Positions 2,401 through 30,423 of a stretch of 39,147 bases of DNA are shown one piece after another. The notes below the pieces were generated by a model. It ran no database searches, was not told the DNA's origin, and saw only the letters and a program-made list of their open reading frames with translations. The stretch covers positions 745,010 to 784,156 of the forward strand of contig JBBDRP010000002.1 in the NCBI GenBank assembly GCA_040905385.1. Direction: 5' to 3'. The position numbers and the translations under genes were made by a program. The stretch is from Minisyncoccota bacterium. GTDB lineage: Bacteria; Patescibacteriota; Minisyncoccia; Phycocordibacterales; SW-6-46-9. Position 1 is the first letter of the stretch. Every line of letters starts with the position of its first letter.

Positions 2401-4932
2401 ATGGCCAAAGGAAAGAAAAAGAAGTCCTCAACCGCAAAGGATAAGCAGCAGTCACTGACCCAGAAGTTACTTCTGGGTAATCAGTCATCGCCAGTCCGAT
2501 CAGCCATTGCCGGCGTACTGATCGCGGCCGCGGCCGGATTCCTGGTTCTGGCGGCCTTTGAATCCGCCGGGTTTGTTGGTGATACAGTCCGCGGTTGGTT
2601 AGCGTATGCCTTTGGGACCGGGTACTGGTTTTTTGTTGCCGGCTTGATATTCTTTGCCTACGCGCTCCTGCGACGAAGTGCCAATCTTCCGACCTTGACG
2701 TGGGTGCATACGGTATCGGCGATCATCTTGTTTTTAACGATATTAGGATTGATTGATGTGGCAGCACCGGAGGCAGGAGGTATCATAGGAGCCTTGATTG
2801 CTGGTGGAGTTATTAGTGCCTTCTCTGTTTATGCCGGGGTGATACTGCTGCAGACAGTGGCGGTGGTAAGTTTGCTAATCTTGGTGGATGAGTACGTAGA
2901 TCTGAGTCGTCAGATAAATCTACCAGCGTTGTCATCTCTCGGTCTATCGAGTACCGCAGAGGATGAAGAGGAACAAGAAACTGAAGGAGAGATGAAAGTA
3001 ACCAACACCGCCCAGACGAATCAATCCACCAGTCAATCTGCTGAATCGCGTGAAGCAACAAAAGACTCCTCATCAGACCCTGAATCATCTGACGATGATC
3101 GGGCAAGCGGGACTACGAAGGGTAAGGATGGAGCCGGCTTTAGCGTGACGAAACCAAAGAAGCATAGTGAAGCTTCTTTTACTGCCTCTCCTCCCCTGAA
3201 AGGTGACTACACACCACCGCCGGTTGAGCTGTTGTCGCGCGATACCGGTGATCCGGAGGTAGGTGATGTAAAGGCGCGAGCTAATTTAATAAAACGAACA
3301 CTGGAAAACTTTAATATTGATGTCGAGATGGACGAAGTATCCATCGGGCCAACCGTCACCCGCTATGCGTTGAAGCCGGCGGAGGGCGTGCGTCTCAACC
3401 GCATCACGAACCTGCAGAACAATCTGGAGATGGCACTGGCGGCTCACCCCGTACGAATCGAGGCTCCGATCCCTGGTAAGTCCTTGGTAGGTGTCGAGGT
3501 TCCAAACACCTCTAAAACAACTGTCGGGCTGGCGGGGCTTATGGGATCAAAGCGGTTTCAGGATGATCCGGCTCCTCTTTTGATGGGTCTCGGACAGGGA
3601 ATTTCAGGTGAGACATACTTTTCGGACCTGAACAAGATGCCGCACCTCTTGATTGGTGGTGCAACCGGCGCGGGAAAGTCGGTGACGGTACATGTGCTGA
3701 TGAACTCGCTTCTCTTCCGCAACGGGCCAGACAATCTGAAGCTGATTATGGTGGACCCAAAGCGGGTTGAGCTAACGCTTTACAATGGTATTCCCCACCT
3801 CTTAACACCCGTTATCACCTCGGCCAAGAAGGCGATTCTGGCCTTGAAGTGGGCGGCTAAGGAGATGGATCGCCGCTACGATATTCTGGAAGAGAACGGC
3901 GCACGCGATATTTCTTCTTATCATAAAACCGTTCTACCAAAGCTAAAAAAACAGCACACCGAGGGTGAGCAGAGTCCAGACACGATGCCGTACATCGTGA
4001 TCGTGATTGATGAGATGGCGGACATGATGAGCGTTTATCCAAAGGAGCTGGAGGCAGTGATTGTCCGCATTGCGCAGATGTCGCGGGCAGTGGGAATTCA
4101 CCTGATTCTGAGCACACAGCGACCAGATGTGAGTATAATTACCGGTATCATTAAGGCCAACATTCCGGCTCGGATTGCGCTGCAGGTATCCTCACAGATT
4201 GATAGTCGTACTATTCTAGACACCAAGGGCGCTGAACAGTTGCTAGGTGCCGGAGATATGCTATTTCAGACCGGGGATATGTCTAAGCCGGTACGTATTC
4301 AGTCTGCCTATATCACCGAGGGTGAGGTAAAGAAGGTGGTAAAACACCTGAAGGATCAGTACGCCGATCAGCTGCAGGATACGGTGAGTCTCAAGGGTGA
4401 CGGCGATGGTGATGGCGGTAAAACCATCTTTGATGTAGCCGCCGAGGCCGAGGAGGATGAGGAGCGAGATGACAAGTACGAAGAGGCGCTGGAGACAGTG
4501 GTAAAGGCTGGTAAGGCCTCGACCTCGCATCTACAGCGAAAACTACGAGTGGGATACAGCCGAGCGGCGCGGATTATTGATGAACTGGAGGAGAACGGCG
4601 TTATCTCGGAAAAGGACGGCACGCGAGCTCGTGATGTCTTGATCACCCATAAAGAACTGGAGGCAGCGCGAGCCGGCGAGACCATCACGCATGAGGACTC
4701 CTCTGACGACTCGTCTCACGGCGAAGGCTCTGGCGAGACAAAGGAGGATTCCCATACCGTAGAACAAGGCGGGGCAGGCGACGACGACCCCACTCCCACG
4801 TCGTCTGGCGACTCTCCTAACGGCGGGGCAGGCTCCGGCGAGGGGGCAAGCGACCCTCAATCATCTGACGATGATCGGGCAAACGAAGAAATTGATGACA
4901 AGTACTTTGAGGCGTTAGAAGAGGATGAGTAA
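2401..4932 (+). CDS. ftsK: DNA translocase FtsK/SpoIIIE
   Basis: N-terminal multi-TM region, acidic linker, and a motor with Walker A GGATGAGKS and IVIDEMADMM. The gamma winged helix reads ASTSHLQRKLRVGYSRAARIIDELEENGVIS. An unusual ~130-aa acidic tail follows the gamma domain. Confidence 0.93.
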   Translation: MAKGKKKKSSTAKDKQQSLTQKLLLGNQSSPVRSAIAGVLIAAAAGFLVLAAFESAGFVGDTVRGWLAYAFGTGYWFFVAGLIFFAYALLRRSANLPTLTWVHTVSAIILFLTILGLIDVAAPEAGGIIGALIAGGVISAFSVYAGVILLQTVAVVSLLILVDEYVDLSRQINLPALSSLGLSSTAEDEEEQETEGEMKVTNTAQTNQSTSQSAESREATKDSSSDPESSDDDRASGTTKGKDGAGFSVTKPKKHSEASFTASPPLKGDYTPPPVELLSRDTGDPEVGDVKARANLIKRTLENFNIDVEMDEVSIGPTVTRYALKPAEGVRLNRITNLQNNLEMALAAHPVRIEAPIPGKSLVGVEVPNTSKTTVGLAGLMGSKRFQDDPAPLLMGLGQGISGETYFSDLNKMPHLLIGGATGAGKSVTVHVLMNSLLFRNGPDNLKLIMVDPKRVELTLYNGIPHLLTPVITSAKKAILALKWAAKEMDRRYDILEENGARDISSYHKTVLPKLKKQHTEGEQSPDTMPYIVIVIDEMADMMSVYPKELEAVIVRIAQMSRAVGIHLILSTQRPDVSIITGIIKANIPARIALQVSSQIDSRTILDTKGAEQLLGAGDMLFQTGDMSKPVRIQSAYITEGEVKKVVKHLKDQYADQLQDTVSLKGDGDGDGGKTIFDVAAEAEEDEERDDKYEEALETVVKAGKASTSHLQRKLRVGYSRAARIIDELEENGVISEKDGTRARDVLITHKELEAARAGETITHEDSSDDSSHGEGSGETKEDSHTVEQGGAGDDDPTPTSSGDSPNGGAGSGEGASDPQSSDDDRANEEIDDKYFEALEEDE

Positions 4933-8482: not shown

Positions 8483-8932
8483 CTAGAAGGGGATGTCCTC
8501 GGGAGTAATGTCTTCATCCTCCGGATAGTCAATCTCCTGATCAGCGTTGTTCTTGTTGTTTTTGTTGCTGCTGCCGGAGTTGTTGTAGTTGCCGTCGTTT
8601 GATCCATTGCGTGGGCCAAACTGAACGCGATTAGCAACGATTTCGGTGCGGTAGTTACGCTTGCCGTCATCACCTTCCCAGCTGCGGGTCTGAATGCGCC
8701 CCTCTACCAAGGCCATTGAACCCTTGGAGAGATACTGAGAGGTTGTCTCGGCCTGACGACCAAAAACAACAATGTTGTGAAAGTTAGTGTCCTCTTTTTT
8801 ATTACCATCACTGTCGGTGTAGTTGCGGTTGGTTGCAAGCGAAAAGTTGCAGACCGCCGTACCGCTCGGAAGGCTTTTGAGCTCTGGATCACGCGTAAGG
8901 TTACCAATTACAAGTGCTTTATTGAGATACAT
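8483..8932 (-). CDS. ssb: Single-stranded DNA-binding protein
   Basis: OB-fold N-terminus MYLNKALVIGNLTRDPELK...FHNIVVFGRQAE...VEGRIQTRSWE, a disordered N/G/S-rich linker, and an acidic tip ending in DIPF. Confidence 0.93.
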   Translation of the reverse strand: MYLNKALVIGNLTRDPELKSLPSGTAVCNFSLATNRNYTDSDGNKKEDTNFHNIVVFGRQAETTSQYLSKGSMALVEGRIQTRSWEGDDGKRNYRTEIVANRVQFGPRNGSNDGNYNNSGSSNKNNKNNADQEIDYPEDEDITPEDIPF

Positions 8933-9030
8933 ACTGTGGCTTTAGTTTTTTATCTACTAGTAGCTGTGACACGAAGTCACCTGAGACTCATTGTCTCATA
9001 CATTATCAGCTAACGCGAGAATAAGTACTT

Positions 9031-27038: not shown

Positions 27039-27686
27039 TTAAATATTTATCGTTTTTCTAAGCTGCTCTGGCTCCCAGGCAATTGGATCAGTGGTAAAGC
27101 CGTTTCCTCTAAACGTGAGATTAGGGTTAAGCTCTACGCGACCCTCTACATACTCGCAGCAGGCTTGATTTATATGGCTTGGCCAGAAATTTTCTGTAAA
27201 GCCATTAAGTAAGGTTGCAAGCCGATTAAGGTGAGGGCCTTCGAGGTTCAGCGTATCAACTACTATTTGATCAGCATTTTGCGAATCGTTCATCTGCATT
27301 AGTTGCTGCTGCTCAAGAGCGTAACAGATACAGGTAATACGCTCAATCGCCTCAACAACAAGATTATCCTTACTTGTTGAGGAATTATTTTGGTCAAAGC
27401 AGGTTGTTTTACCAGTGATGTGTTCAGCTATCTGCGTTCTAATATCACGTACATTAAGAAAATTATTATCTTTAAGTACGTCAATAAGCATTGGACCAAC
27501 CACTTGATTAACTGCAGCAAGATACTGAGCAATGGTCTGTGGTCGGTGTAAATAACCACTTTTTCGGTATGGTTCCCAACGTTCCAAAAAATCAGGGTAT
27601 TTTTCGGACTGAACAGGAGTAGGAATGGCTTGCGGACAGGACCGGATTAGCAGGCCCCAGCGTATATGTTTATATAGGACATTCAT
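27039..27686 (-). CDS. Degenerate paralogue of the adjacent HD-domain protein (metal ligands partly lost)
   Basis: Aligns with the 27812-28639 product: ERWEPYRKSGYLHRPQTIAQYL vs GRWEKYRKAGNTRSQSVSQHVT, IAEHITG vs VAVHDIG, and EGPHLNRLATLL vs QGPHLDKLFRWL. The first His is replaced by Tyr and the HD Asp by Ile. Confidence 0.6.
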   Translation of the reverse strand: MNVLYKHIRWGLLIRSCPQAIPTPVQSEKYPDFLERWEPYRKSGYLHRPQTIAQYLAAVNQVVGPMLIDVLKDNNFLNVRDIRTQIAEHITGKTTCFDQNNSSTSKDNLVVEAIERITCICYALEQQQLMQMNDSQNADQIVVDTLNLEGPHLNRLATLLNGFTENFWPSHINQACCEYVEGRVELNPNLTFRGNGFTTDPIAWEPEQLRKTINI

Positions 27687-27765
27687 CTAGACCTCTTTTT
27701 TTTAAGTTGCAAGTTTGTTCTGACTTCCAGAATACAAGAAATGCGCTTTTTGTAAATGAAAAAGT

Positions 27766-27797
27766 TAAAAAGCCCTACCAAGTTAGTTGGCAGAGCT
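27766..27797 (-). terminator. Rho-independent terminator after the HD-domain gene
   Basis: Minus strand reads GCTCTGCCAA-ctaact-TTGGTAGGGC followed by TTTTTAAC. Confidence 0.6.
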
Positions 27798-27811
27798 TTG
27801 ATTAGGATTGA

Positions 27812-28639
27812 TTATTTTTCTGGTGGTGGAGTTTGTGCCGGAAACCAAACCTCTTTTCCATACATACCAGGGTTAGGAAACTCTGCTCCCCGGAGTTCCG
27901 TGAATGCGTACAAACTCTTACGTAGAGATTGCCAGAAACCATCTAGGGTTGAAAGCCATCTAAATAATTTATCAAGATGTGGACCTTGTGAATTTACAAC
28001 TTGAACAAAAATACAGACATTGTTGTGATGTTTGTATTGTTCATACGCATATTGCACATAGCCAAGACGCTCAACAAGTTCAAATAACAGGACTGTTACT
28101 GGTTTCTCTTTCCAGAGCTTTTCCATTATCTTCCTAGCTTCATCAGGAAAATTACTGGGATTACTCCGAGCATACTGTAAAAGATATACTTCGTGAATAT
28201 ACCCAAATTGAGGACCAACTCTTTCCTTTTCCCGTTCGATTTTTTCATCTTCAATAAATCGATCGTAAATAGATAGGAACTTATGATATTCTTTTAAATC
28301 TTTATCATTTGATTTATTCTCATACAGAACATCATTCTCTGAATCCTCATCGAGGTGATATATTTCACCAATATCATGAACAGCGACTGCGTCAGACAAA
28401 AGCTCTCCATCAAACTCTAACTGCCGTTGCCACAAAAGTGGTTTTAAAACTAACAACGTACTAGCAATAGCTGAAGTGACATGTTGAGAAACAGATTGTG
28501 ACCGTGTGTTACCAGCCTTTCGGTACTTTTCCCAACGACCAACTTTATCTTGCTTTTCAATTTCACGAGATACTTCAGATGCCTTTCCCAACAGAACAGC
28601 ATTTTCTACGTACTCTAAATCAAATGGAATTTTTTCCAT
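27812..28639 (-). CDS. HD-domain phosphohydrolase, YfbR-like 5'-deoxynucleotidase family (putative)
   Basis: RWEKYRKAGNTRSQSVSQH...AVAVHDIGEI reproduces the RW...ESVAEH ... HD layout of YfbR-type HD nucleotidases. GGAGG lies 4 nt upstream of the ATG. Confidence 0.6.
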   Translation of the reverse strand: MEKIPFDLEYVENAVLLGKASEVSREIEKQDKVGRWEKYRKAGNTRSQSVSQHVTSAIASTLLVLKPLLWQRQLEFDGELLSDAVAVHDIGEIYHLDEDSENDVLYENKSNDKDLKEYHKFLSIYDRFIEDEKIEREKERVGPQFGYIHEVYLLQYARSNPSNFPDEARKIMEKLWKEKPVTVLLFELVERLGYVQYAYEQYKHHNNVCIFVQVVNSQGPHLDKLFRWLSTLDGFWQSLRKSLYAFTELRGAEFPNPGMYGKEVWFPAQTPPPEK

Positions 28640-28704: not shown

Positions 28705-28732
28705 CAATAAAAAACCGCCATAAAGCGGTTTT
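28705..28732 (-). terminator. Rho-independent terminator ending the rplK transcript
   Basis: Minus strand reads AAACCGC-tttatg-GCGGTTTTTTATT. Confidence 0.65.
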
Positions 28733-28820: not shown

Positions 28821-28841
28821 TTACTTCACCTCAATACCCAT
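28821..28841 (-). pseudogene. Relic copy of the last 7 codons of rplK (MGIEVK-stop)
   Basis: ATGGGTATTGAGGTGAAGTAA vs the real gene end ATGGGTATTGAAGTAAAATAA. The three differences are all synonymous third positions. Same strand, about 200 nt downstream of the real stop. Confidence 0.55.
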
Positions 28842-29037
28842 AAATCTACTCGCTCGCTTCACTCACTGCGCACAGTTTTCCAACGATCGCTGCCTGACTG
28901 TGCACAACTAATTTATAAATAAGGTTTATCTCTGAGTGAAGTTCACGGCGCGACTGAGGAACGAAACGAGACGCACAAAACAGGTGCGTTGAGTGAGAAC
29001 CGGAAGGAGAAACAAAGAAATTCGCCAGAGATGGGCC

Positions 29038-29457
29038 TTATTTTACTTCAATACCCATTGAACGACACGTTCCCATGATGATTTTATCAGCAGCTTCCAG
29101 GTCATTTGCAGAGAGGTCATCAAACTTCTGCTCGGAGATTTCGCGTACCTGTGCTCTCGTGATTGATCCAGCTACTTCATTAAGAATGTCTGCGGCACCG
29201 CTTTTGATACCAGCCTTCTTAAGGATAAGGCTTGAGGCCGGCGGCGACTTGAACTCTAGCTCAAAGGATCGATCGTCGAATACCGAGATAACTACCGGAA
29301 TAAGATCACCACCCATATCAGCAGTCGCCTCGTTAAATCGAGTTACAAACTCCCCAATATTAACTCCTACCTGACCCAGTGCAGGACCAATCGGCGGTGC
29401 AGGATTAGCCTGCCCGGCCGGAATCTGGAGTTTCATTGTTCGTTCTAACTGAGCCAT
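29038..29457 (-). CDS. rplK: 50S ribosomal protein L11
   Basis: [37 protein letters not shown] is the canonical uL11 N-terminal domain. Confidence 0.95.
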
Positions 29458-29513
29458 AATTTGATTGGTTTAATATTTTTAGGTGAAAATTAAATGTCGG
29501 TCTTTCTTTCGTC

Positions 29514-29570
29514 CTACCCCGTAGCCGGAACGTAGTGACGTGGTACCGGGGTTCGTTCTAGTTGAGCCAT
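29514..29570 (-). other. Upstream mini-ORF duplicating the rplK initiation region (MAQLERT...)
   Basis: AATTATGGCTCAACTAGAACGAAC vs the real start AATTATGGCTCAGTTAGAACGAAC. Translation is MAQLERTPVPRHYVPATG-stop, and the first 7 codons differ from rplK only synonymously. Confidence 0.5.
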
Positions 29571-29667
29571 AATTGAGCATTTAGCTTTTATCTGTTAGCA
29601 AATTAGCTTCTTAATAATATAGAAATAACCACAAAAATCAAGTAATTTAGAGTTTTAATCAAGCTTT

Positions 29668-30234
29668 TTAGAGCCGTTCGACCTGCAAGAAATCAAGCTC
29701 GACCGGTGTTTCGCGACCGAACATATTTACCAATACCTTAACCTTACCGCGTTCGCGGTCGACTTCTGAGACGGTTCCCTCGAGCTCGTCGAATGGACCG
29801 TTGATAACGCGGACTGGGTCACCTTCGGAAAGGTTAATCTCGTGCTCGGCTGAGTCAGATGACATCTGTGCGAACAGCTCATCTACCTCTTCCTGAGCCA
29901 GTGGATCCGGCTGTGAACCTGAACCTACGAAACCAGTCACACGCGGGGTGTTGCGCACGACGTACCAGGAGTCCTCGGTAATTCTCATCTGCACGAGAAC
30001 ATATCCTGGATAGATGCGCTCCTCTTCCTCGACACGCTTGCCACGCTTTACCTTCATCACCTGCTTGGTCGGTACAATCACATCAAAGATGAGATCACTC
30101 ATATCCATAGAATCGATGCGTTGCTTGAGATTACGAGCAACCGAGTCTTCATACCCAGCATAGGTGTGAATCGCATACCAGTTCTTGGTATCCTCGTCAG
30201 CAAGTAGGTCTTGACTATTTTCCTTTTCGGTCAT
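29668..30234 (-). CDS. nusG: Transcription termination/antitermination factor NusG
   Basis: WYAIHTYAGYEDSV (NGN domain) and a C-terminal KOW (GDPVRVINGPFDELEGTVSEVD..GKVKVLVNMFGRETPVEL). Confidence 0.93.
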   Translation of the reverse strand: MTEKENSQDLLADEDTKNWYAIHTYAGYEDSVARNLKQRIDSMDMSDLIFDVIVPTKQVMKVKRGKRVEEEERIYPGYVLVQMRITEDSWYVVRNTPRVTGFVGSGSQPDPLAQEEVDELFAQMSSDSAEHEINLSEGDPVRVINGPFDELEGTVSEVDRERGKVKVLVNMFGRETPVELDFLQVERL

Positions 30235-30243
30235 AAATATTGA

Positions 30244-30423
30244 TTAGAGCACGAAGTTCTCAAGAAGGTATGCAAACAACTGATCAAACGCACCAAGATA
30301 GTACGCGATTGCAACAGAAAGAATAATGACCAGCGCCGTAATGTTCACCGACTGGCGCTGTGTTGGCCACTTCACTTTCTTGAATTCATGATTTACCTCT
30401 TTGAGAAATTTTATTGGTTTCAT
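30244..30423 (-). CDS. secE: Preprotein translocase subunit SecE
   Basis: Hand-translated 59 aa, MKPIKFLKEVNHEFKKVKWPTQRQSVNITALVIILSVAIAYYLGAFDQLFAYLLENFVL, containing the SecE signature (E..KV.WP.r.e) plus one TM helix. Directly upstream of nusG. Not in the ORF track. Confidence 0.85.
   Translation of the reverse strand: MKPIKFLKEVNHEFKKVKWPTQRQSVNITALVIILSVAIAYYLGAFDQLFAYLLENFVL

Follow-up and report, generated by a model that had tools for sequence, protein, structure and literature searches.

Displaced copies of both gene ends around rplK in an ultra-small Minisyncoccota bacterium: possible scars of two small, gene-less insertions

Why should a gene for an essential ribosomal protein be bracketed by copies of its own two ends? 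The question is raised by rplK, the gene for ribosomal protein L11, in a 39,147-nucleotide (nt) stretch of DNA (the window, hereafter) from a Minisyncoccota bacterium (GenBank assembly GCA_040905385.1, contig JBBDRP010000002.1, positions 745,010–784,156), an ultra-small member of the Candidate Phyla Radiation (CPR) with a genome of roughly 0.78 Mb. An earlier note on this sequence had pointed to a copy of the gene's first codons upstream and of its last codons downstream, and had proposed that a full-length rplK might have been inserted within an older one. The evidence assembled here leads to a different answer, which we hold to be probable, if only modestly so: the copies would be scars of small, gene-less, site-specific insertions that supplied replacement gene ends, and their closest counterparts would be decayed integrative elements flanked by attachment (att) sites.

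The upstream copy (29551–29574) matches the live start region (29438–29461) at 22 of 24 nt across a distance of 113 nt. The downstream copy (28821–28841) matches the gene end (29038–29058) at 18 of 21 nt, 217 nt away, with all three differences at third codon positions; weaker similarity carries it to 35 nt (74%), which bears out the earlier note's remark on the preceding codons. That note's coordinates for the repeats, for a mini-open reading frame (mini-ORF) and for a GC hairpin were likewise all found to be correct. Homology to rplK was not detected past the short repeats, which measure about 24 nt (5') and about 21–35 nt (3'); the idea that the flanks are decayed larger rplK duplicates was rejected, the signal ending at about 24 nt and 35 nt, respectively. 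Repeats this short invite the suspicion of chance similarity or faulty assembly, and simple shuffling gives p values of about 0.002–0.008 per repeat for a match anywhere. A generic test was applied to gene ends, comparing the first 20 nt of each gene with the 300 nt upstream and the last 21 nt with the 400 nt downstream, and retaining the best match per gene. Among the 34 genes of the window, rplK alone stands out (18/20 and 18/21, against 10–13/20 and 10–15/21 for the others). The loci of relatives, collected via their L11 proteins and a DNA pattern scan (labelled L001–L050; about 300 kb, 256 ORFs), give clear signals (17/20, 17/21, 19/21) at rplK only, in L032, L031 and L038; the sole further match at the reporting threshold is an AT-rich 16/20 at a 538-aa ORF in L006. 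These relatives, assembled independently from other samples, repeat the same layout. In a second assembly of the source run, a Logan contig matches 28600–29800 exactly at 41x depth, and a second sample of the source study yielded contigs that cover, at 100% identity, the junction of filler and real start as well as the orphan 3' end. The end copies are thus genuine homologs of the rplK ends, and chance or artefact is scarcely credible as their source.

The history of the upstream copy can be read from relatives that have no second start. Spacers between nusG and rplK range from 54 to 307 nt among the relatives; in L020 and L039 the spacer is 70 nt long and can be aligned with the promoter and 5' untranslated region (UTR) of the window as far as the upstream copy, after which the coding sequence of both runs on with AATGAAACT, at the very point where the live, downstream start copy of the window ends. 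The upstream copy is therefore best read as the ancestral start, and the window, by this alignment, appears to have gained 113 nt behind coding nt 20, composed of an 89-nt filler and a second copy of positions −4 to +20. Two distant relatives, L032 and L049, carry a homologous insert at exactly this position; their rplK DNA is only 69–71% identical to that of the window. In L032 the orphan ATGGCACACGTAAAACGTAC and the live start ATGGCTGACGTTAAACGTAC agree at 17 of 20 nt, against a background of 10–14, with a spacing of 98 nt; in L049 the orphan ATGGCAGATGTAAAACATAC and live start ATGGCCGATATTAAAAGAAC agree at 14/20, a score inside the background range; here the assignment is based on the hairpin homology and on a spacing that is again 98 nt. 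Each of these two orphans resembles the starts of its own sub-clade. All three fillers share a hairpin whose stems are invariant and which has a bulged C (CCCCG(G)UACC-loop-GGCUACGGGG; CCCCG(G)TACC..GGCTACGGGG in DNA form), the motif AAGAAAG-CGACA, and an A-rich run to the ATG. The insert is not present in at least ten other lineages (L017, L020, L024, L030, L031, L033, L035, L038, L039, L050), and the close relatives of L032 that share its MADVKRT N-terminus (L035–L038) have short spacers and no insert. The filler's ends (CCCGGTACC... and ...ACCAATCA) are not inverted repeats. The hairpin by itself recurs twice more elsewhere in the window's genome, as copies of about 42 nt with 2 mismatches and unrelated flanks, on contigs of 13.1 kb and 10.5 kb from run X1, both at the same depth of about 39x; no further hairpin copies were found in the relatives' 300 kb, and a metagenome pattern scan for the 5' filler returned 0 matches from a collection that evidently does not hold L032's contig.

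The 5' UTRs of rplK have a regularity of their own. They are built of phased 8-nt units ending at the ATG: CCTAAGAA CCTAACTT CCCAGATT CCTAACTA CCTAAAAT in L017 (1850–1907), GATTCCTA three times in L024 (2950–3000), and GCTAANNN units in the window (29575–29612). L029 has one such unit fewer than L024–28.

On the other side of the gene, the downstream copy forms the last part of a non-coding element lying behind rplK. This element is present in the window, L017 (where the orphan is degraded), L020–23, L024–29 (as two tandem copies), L031, L038, L039/42/48 and L050, at least eight lineages in all, and is not present in L030, L032, L033 or L035–37. Orphan 3' ends can be recognised in L020, L024–29 (two copies), L031, L038 and L039. 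A scan of Joint Genome Institute (JGI) metagenomes with the element's conserved block produced ten matches, and because all ten lie directly behind rplK, the element is taken to be site-specific; a BLAST search across the collected DNA found no other copy of it. The conserved block exists in two sequence types, and L024–29 stack type II and then type I, each with an orphan end, the distal orphan being more decayed than the proximal one. In the window the element is degraded, and a palindromic element has replaced its 5' part.

Several other structures gather around the stop codon. In most lineages the terminal 15–30 nt of the gene, with the stop codon among them, pair with the DNA just downstream (e.g., L038 2580–2633; L024 3391–3460), and the partner co-varies (AGC/GCT in L038, AGT/ACT in L050 and L017); judged from these pairings, a hairpin enclosing the stop codon seems to be maintained. 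Pairing between the start of the 3' element and its orphan was considered as a case of terminal inverted repeats, and is significant in L038 only; in the other lineages the partner of the inverted copy is the live end, which makes an ordinary gene-end hairpin. The window's palindromic element (AAATAAGGCCCATCTCTG ... CAGAGATAAACCTTATTT) overlaps the last codon and stop of rplK with its left arm; the copy in L039 lies at about 8868–9000, related palindromic sequences (..TGGCAAATTTCTTTGT..) occur up- and downstream of rplK in L033, and this element of roughly 127 nt looks like a separate family of mobile repeats. A near-perfect AT-rich palindrome, AAGAATTATATAATATATTATATAATTCTT, is found 50–200 nt downstream of rplK in L031, L032, L036 and L038, within flanks that are otherwise unalignable, and could be a bidirectional terminator or a protein-binding site. 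Finally, a hairpin nested in the 3' element, about 60–110 nt past the stop codon, is a perfect 20-bp palindrome in L018 and L019 (GGAAACCTCCTAAAACATAA..TTATGTTTTAGGAGGTTTCC) and imperfect in L017 and L020, which looks like a template-switch event of 'palindrome perfecting'.

How the two sides relate to one another is decided by their distribution. The 5' feature occurs without the 3' feature in L032 and L049, the 3' feature without the 5' feature in L017, L020, L024–29, L031, L038, L039 and L050, and both occur together in the window; because they occur separately among relatives, they represent independent events. Related genomes without the extra copies, for which the earlier note had proposed a search, do exist, and L030, for example, has neither feature. 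The recombination scar envisaged there was thus broadly the right idea, and its weakness lies in supposing one event. In its explicit form, a whole foreign rplK cassette (leader, gene and tail) would have landed in an older rplK whose first and last seven codons persist. The window, with orphans on both sides, lends itself to such a model, and its rplK may indeed be mosaic: the first 276 nt differ from L020 and L039 by 12–14% and from L017 and L024 by 21–27%, whereas the last 138 nt differ from all four by about 20–22%; this 3' third carries CGT TCA codons where the nearest relatives have AGA AGT; and MaxChi returns p = 0.02 against L039 and p = 0.12 against L020. A recombination breakpoint around nt 290–330 of the gene is possible on these figures. 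Yet the separate distributions contradict a single cassette, the 3' arrangement exceeds the 5' one by far in age and in spread, and over its first two-thirds the rplK of the window shows the normal grouping with L020 and L039. We regard the single-cassette model as very improbable.

The sequences of the orphans bear on where they came from. Orphans tend to resemble the local gene end: in L031 both copies read MGVEVK-stop, and in L038 the gene ends in ..EVKQ-stop and the orphan in ..EVTQ-stop, with 29 of 32 nt identical, the orphan's ..VTQ-stop being the live end of the P0020 protein. In L020, L024 and L039, by contrast, the orphans have the end of a 140-aa type of protein (..KG-stop, with an extra Gly codon) and the live genes encode 139 aa; ..KG-stop is the real C-terminus in sister lineages. 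Since these orphans carry ..KG-stop against a live ..K-stop, the two copies were not born identical, which argues against plain target-site duplication and favours a replacement end derived from another allele. The earlier note had leaned instead on divergence that was purely synonymous. This holds within the window, where five of five differences are synonymous, and fails across lineages: orphan and live copies differ at third positions in 21 of 37 cases (roughly 50% expected; p = 0.26), their codon differences comprise 19 synonymous and 10 nonsynonymous changes, and the orphans of L039 and L017 have no ATG or stop codon. Such a pattern would be expected of a pair in which coding selection acts on one copy while the other is free to drift; in addition, different functional alleles may be the source of some orphans. 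Support for the fragments as former rplK ends comes from the upstream copy, read as a former live start, and from the orphan ends of L020, L024 and L039, which are live in sister lineages. Polarising the changes by outgroup, to say which copy had changed, was abandoned, as rplK DNA is only 64–88% identical among the relatives and synonymous sites are near saturation.

The 3' element has a history that is partly its own. Element and rplK identities compare as 98% and 77% for L020 and the second copy of L024 (L024b), 90% and 69% for L017 and L038, and 64% and 77% for L031 and L038; by these comparisons, its similarity does not track host distance, and it is often more conserved than rplK. Along the locus, L017 and L020 are 73–88% identical in nusG and rplK, 30–50% in the 5' spacer, 90–95% in the element and 30–40% beyond the orphan. 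Exchange between copies is also apparent: in L024 and L029, and not in L025–28, the second half of the proximal element (3565–3610) has been overwritten by the distal copy, a case of gene conversion; in L025–28 this half differs from the distal copy by about 26% in a lineage otherwise 93% identical.

On the reading that we favour, two separate, small and gene-less insertions would have entered the extreme tips of rplK. At the 5' tip, a hairpin, an A-rich leader and a fresh copy of −4 to +20 would have been inserted, stranding the ancestral promoter, 5' UTR and start codon 113 nt upstream, where the old start would now open an 18-codon mini-ORF. At the 3' tip, a non-coding element would have come to lie between the live end and an older copy of the last 21–35 nt, and this older copy would front the ancestral terminator; in the window the element would later have been degraded and invaded by the palindromic repeat. 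The gene would have stayed intact because a complete copy of the interrupted end lies on the gene side of each insert. The elements themselves would be miniature and non-autonomous, entering one specific site. Entry may have been by site-specific recombination with the 21–32-nt repeat as its core, as at the att sites of integrative elements and their integrase-less remnants, or by recombination between strains without a dedicated enzyme, with rplK as one homology arm and the 20–30-nt orphan as the other; the latter route would fit the gene conversion and the mosaic signal and would leave the first origin unexplained. Spread among lineages, tandem stacking, gene conversion and decay would have followed. 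The elements are probably neutral or selfish passengers, rather than regulators.

The same tips might instead be prone to recurrent local errors of replication or repair, in which hairpins provoke template switching or slippage and duplicate about 20–30 nt together with nearby sequence, with nothing mobile involved. The live 3' end of rplK does form a hairpin with post-stop sequence in most lineages, palindrome perfecting has apparently affected L018 and L019 relative to L017, and a GC hairpin stands exactly at the 5' junction. Against this, the same filler (75–89 nt on the 5' side, 150–250 nt on the 3' side) sits at one and the same site in lineages with rplK DNA of only about 70% identity, with interleaved lineages that have no filler, and independent errors are unlikely because they would not recreate homologous filler. 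The incongruence between 3' element similarity and host distance points the same way. We consider such errors an improbable explanation.

Insertion at the ends of ribosomal protein genes has precedents. Elements with tyrosine recombinases use the 3' ends of ribosomal protein genes as integration sites and, in rarer cases, either end of some other protein-coding gene, as far as the excerpts drawn on here describe them (PMC5704250, PMC5357655). In the same excerpts, they are bounded by direct repeats of 8–60 bp, decay to gene-less cis-mobilizable elements (CIMEs) and accrete in tandem, and the ribosomal targets given for streptococcal elements are rplL, rpmE, rpmG and rpsI (PMC5704250, PMC5357655). 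As in these excerpted accounts of streptococcal integrative elements and CIMEs, rplK is hit at its extreme 3' end, the gene remains intact and the opposite side of the insert bears an orphan end; both repeats persist in gene-less remnants, and different element types accrete in tandem at the live site, as types II and I do in L024–29 with the more decayed orphan distal. The repeats, 24 nt (5') and 21–35 nt (3'), fall within the range described, one copy being the live gene end (up to 29/32 identical, in L038), and the sites are filled in some lineages and empty in close relatives (5': window, L032 and L049 against at least ten; 3': at least eight lineages against L030, L032, L033 and L035–37). 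Unlike CIMEs, the elements here measure only about 90–250 nt, no integrase-bearing relative was found for them, they reside in a CPR host with a genome of under a megabase, and one gene is hit at both ends; moreover, rplK is not among the target genes named in the excerpts (PMC5704250, PMC5357655). Four defining features of site-specific integrative elements are present at rplK. The inserts are also far smaller than any att-flanked remnant known to us. Integrative elements and prophages that target tRNA genes carry a replacement tRNA 3' end; the rplK inserts resemble them in supplying a spare gene end and orphaning the displaced native one, and differ in their protein-coding target, in being gene-less, and in a 5' version that needs a leader and a start codon. 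The loci compared here contain no tRNA genes.

Small palindromic repeats, such as miniature inverted-repeat transposable elements (MITEs), repetitive extragenic palindromic (REP) sequences and Rickettsia palindromic elements (RPEs), offer a further comparison. As with these, the 5' insert starts with a GC hairpin of which at least two further copies exist in the genome, a distinct palindromic element lies at the stop codon, and presence varies among close relatives. Unlike these, the 5' filler has no terminal inverted repeats, the duplications are 21–32 nt long and non-identical, and the 3' element is confined to a single site, with all ten metagenome matches behind rplK. A MITE-style target-site duplication would be identical at birth, and the orphans of L020, L024 and L039 differ by a whole codon.

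Several observations weigh against the insertion reading. The features that would be decisive, an integrase or autonomous relative and an excision product, were not found: no recombinase is encoded in the window or any collected locus, no autonomous relative appeared in collections of viral contigs, phages or plasmids, and no excised, empty-site or circular junction was seen in the contigs of three runs, which is weak evidence given that contigs drop rare variants. A circle of 113 nt or roughly 200 nt would also be implausibly small as a recombination substrate. On the 5' side, the three pairwise filler identities (72, 66 and 74%) follow the same rank order as those of rplK (71, 69 and 77%), and filler that diverges like the gene fits old vertical inheritance under constraint better than recent transfer. 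On the 3' side, an inverted copy of the gene end and TTGGAAAG follow the live stop codon in element-bearing lineages and also in element-free L030, which makes the exact boundaries of the 3' insertion ambiguous. Lastly, the stems of the 5' hairpin are invariant in three lineages, and pairing in the 3'-element hairpin is kept through three compensatory changes; both leave room for selection for function.

Such selection is the core of another explanation, in which the 5' orphan start, mini-ORF and hairpin and the 3'-UTR element would be kept as regulatory RNA for tuning L11 synthesis—by translation of the upstream ORF or termination–reinitiation on the 5' side and through mRNA stability on the 3' side—in a lineage that has apparently lost L1. 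L1 is the usual repressor of the L11 operon. The good promoter upstream of the orphan start (29641–29614) implies that the mini-ORF, probably part of the rplK transcript, should be transcribed and translated from a native initiation region, as the earlier note's proposed leader peptide or decoy start would require. The mini-ORF equivalents have 25 codons in L032 and 31 in L049, in none of the three lineages does the hairpin close the frame, which also survives the 12-nt length difference among the fillers; in L049 the stop falls only 2 nt before the live ATG. Hairpin stems are invariant though the fillers are only 66–74% identical, the orphans of L032 and L049 differ at 3/20 positions where their live starts differ at 7/20, and the 3' element, which is more conserved than rplK in several pairs, shows its three compensatory pairs among 9 sequences. 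Other observations count against regulation. Most relatives are free of the 5' insert, and each of the two elements is missing from many close relatives; the window's 3' element has lost one hairpin arm, and the orphans of L017 and L039 are decayed. The mini-ORF stop is not conserved in position (53 nt before the live ATG in the window, 23 nt in L032), no U tract of the terminator type follows the 5' hairpin, the whole leader folds no better than its shuffles (z = +0.87), and the invariance of the hairpin in three lineages leaves no covariation to count. A search against Rfam at permissive thresholds matched no known RNA family, and no resemblance was detected to the L11 site of 23S rRNA (helices 43/44), a comparison that counts as a lead only. 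Like the E. coli L11 (rplKA) operon, whose autoregulatory leader is bound by L1, the window appears to have a structured, transcribed region before rplK; it differs in the missing Rfam match, rRNA mimicry and L1 gene at the locus, and in an insert that most relatives do not have. We judge a selected regulatory role unlikely, though it is the main rival to the insertion reading.

Three other functions for the duplicated ends were considered and set aside. If the orphan were transcribed in antisense, the RNA could base-pair with the live start, and the window's two differences would be G–U wobbles, but the three in L032 are transversions that break pairing. Programmed bypass from the orphan to the live copy, of which phage T4 gene 60 is an example, would yield the same protein as direct initiation, with no need for a hop. 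A diversity-generating retroelement, with template and variable repeats, would require a reverse transcriptase, and none lies nearby; the repeats are also too short.

Beyond insertion at this one gene, CPR bacteria could harbour an undescribed family of miniature 'end-replacing' elements that encode no protein, with rplK as one of its targets; these elements would home to the first or last 20–30 nt of essential genes and always supply a spare copy of the interrupted end. Movement might rely on a structure-specific enzyme acting in trans, on host recombination via the orphan homology arm, or on an RNA-templated route, and in lineages without L1 the elements might have been co-opted to set L11 levels. 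We regard this wider proposal as fairly unlikely.

The earlier note had also observed that rplA, the usual partner gene, does not follow rplK, and this is the case at the locus. No rplA follows rplK in any Paceibacteria-type relative examined (L001–L011) or in the close clade, whereas it stands directly after rplK in the Andersenbacteria-like L012, L013 and L015 and in the Elusimicrobia locus L016. According to an excerpt of one study, CPR bacteria often lack ribosomal protein L1 (10.1101/2022.01.07.475337). Because the missing rplA is common to Paceibacteria-type relatives and matches this known loss, it is not taken as part of the insertion event.

The features described above are placed on the window in Table 1. 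On the minus strand, the order of genes is secD, secF, secE (30244–30423), nusG (29668–30234) and rplK, followed by two HD-domain-like ORFs, then folA and a thymidylate-cycle block. The nearest L11 proteins are those of uncultured Paceibacteria-type CPR bacteria. Gene content 3' of rplK varies among lineages. In the window, rplK and folA are separated by the two HD-domain-like ORFs, which stand in tandem (275 and 215 aa; 27039–28639) and have no Pfam match at E ≤ 0.001; L030 (3574–4389) has one 271-aa homolog of them, L020 (3421–3774) has none and carries folA directly after the rplK tail, and L024–29 have two dihydrofolate reductase genes downstream of rplK.

Table 1. Positions of rplK and of predicted or compared features around it in the window
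Feature	Position	Strand	Basis
Ancestral rplK promoter-like site (TTGATT, 16 nt, TATTAT), upstream of the orphan start	29614–29641	−	Aligns with the nusG–rplK spacers of insert-free L020 and L039
Orphaned putative ancestral rplK start (−4 to +20: AATT ATG GCT CAA CTA GAA CGA AC)	29551–29574	−	22/24 against the live start; at the start-codon position of insert-free relatives
Bulged GC hairpin (CCCCGGUACC...GGCUACGGGG), 5' end of the insert	29517–29551	−	Folds locally; stems invariant in the window, L032 and L049
Mini-ORF MAQLERTPVPRHYVPATG-stop, 18 codons, reading through the hairpin, stop 53 nt before the live ATG	29514–29570	−	Equivalents in L032 and L049
Filler of 89 nt: hairpin, then A-rich leader with the conserved AAGAAAG-CGACA motif	29462–29550	−	Fillers of L032 and L049 66–74% identical
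Live rplK translation start region, second copy of −4 to +20	29438–29461	−	Sequence
rplK (ribosomal protein L11, 139 aa)	29038–29457	−	Pfam Ribosomal_L11_N 3e-26, Ribosomal_L11 7e-24
Palindromic element, roughly 127 nt, abutting/overlapping the rplK stop codon; inverted arms 28917–28934 and 29026–29043	28917–29043	−	Fold; common to L039/L042/L048
Remnant of the 3' element's conserved block; a 12-nt deletion removes the 3' arm of the block hairpin	28842–28894	−	Alignment; undeleted minor variant in run X2
Orphan rplK 3' end (core 28821–28841, ATGGGTATTGAGGTGAAGTAA = MGIEVK-stop; weaker homology back to GTAGA)	28821–28855	−	Repeat comparison
Putative intrinsic terminator of the rplK transcript (ACCGC-TTTATG-GCGGT, then T6)	28708–28732	−	Read from the sequence; orthologous in L020 and L039 (after the orphan) and in L030 (after the live end)

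These observations suggest that an essential, single-copy gene of a minimal genome tolerates insertions in its coding ends, where the insert, or the process that makes it, leaves a complete replacement end. To our knowledge, very few mobile elements have been recognised in CPR genomes; if those at rplK are mobile, they would be far smaller than known site-specific integrative elements and would carry no genes. Orphan ends of this kind can mislead the annotation of start sites and create spurious mini-ORFs, and the presence or absence of the elements could serve as a strain marker. The 3' element, better conserved than the neighbouring ribosomal gene, may be either a recently spreading element or an unrecognised functional RNA.

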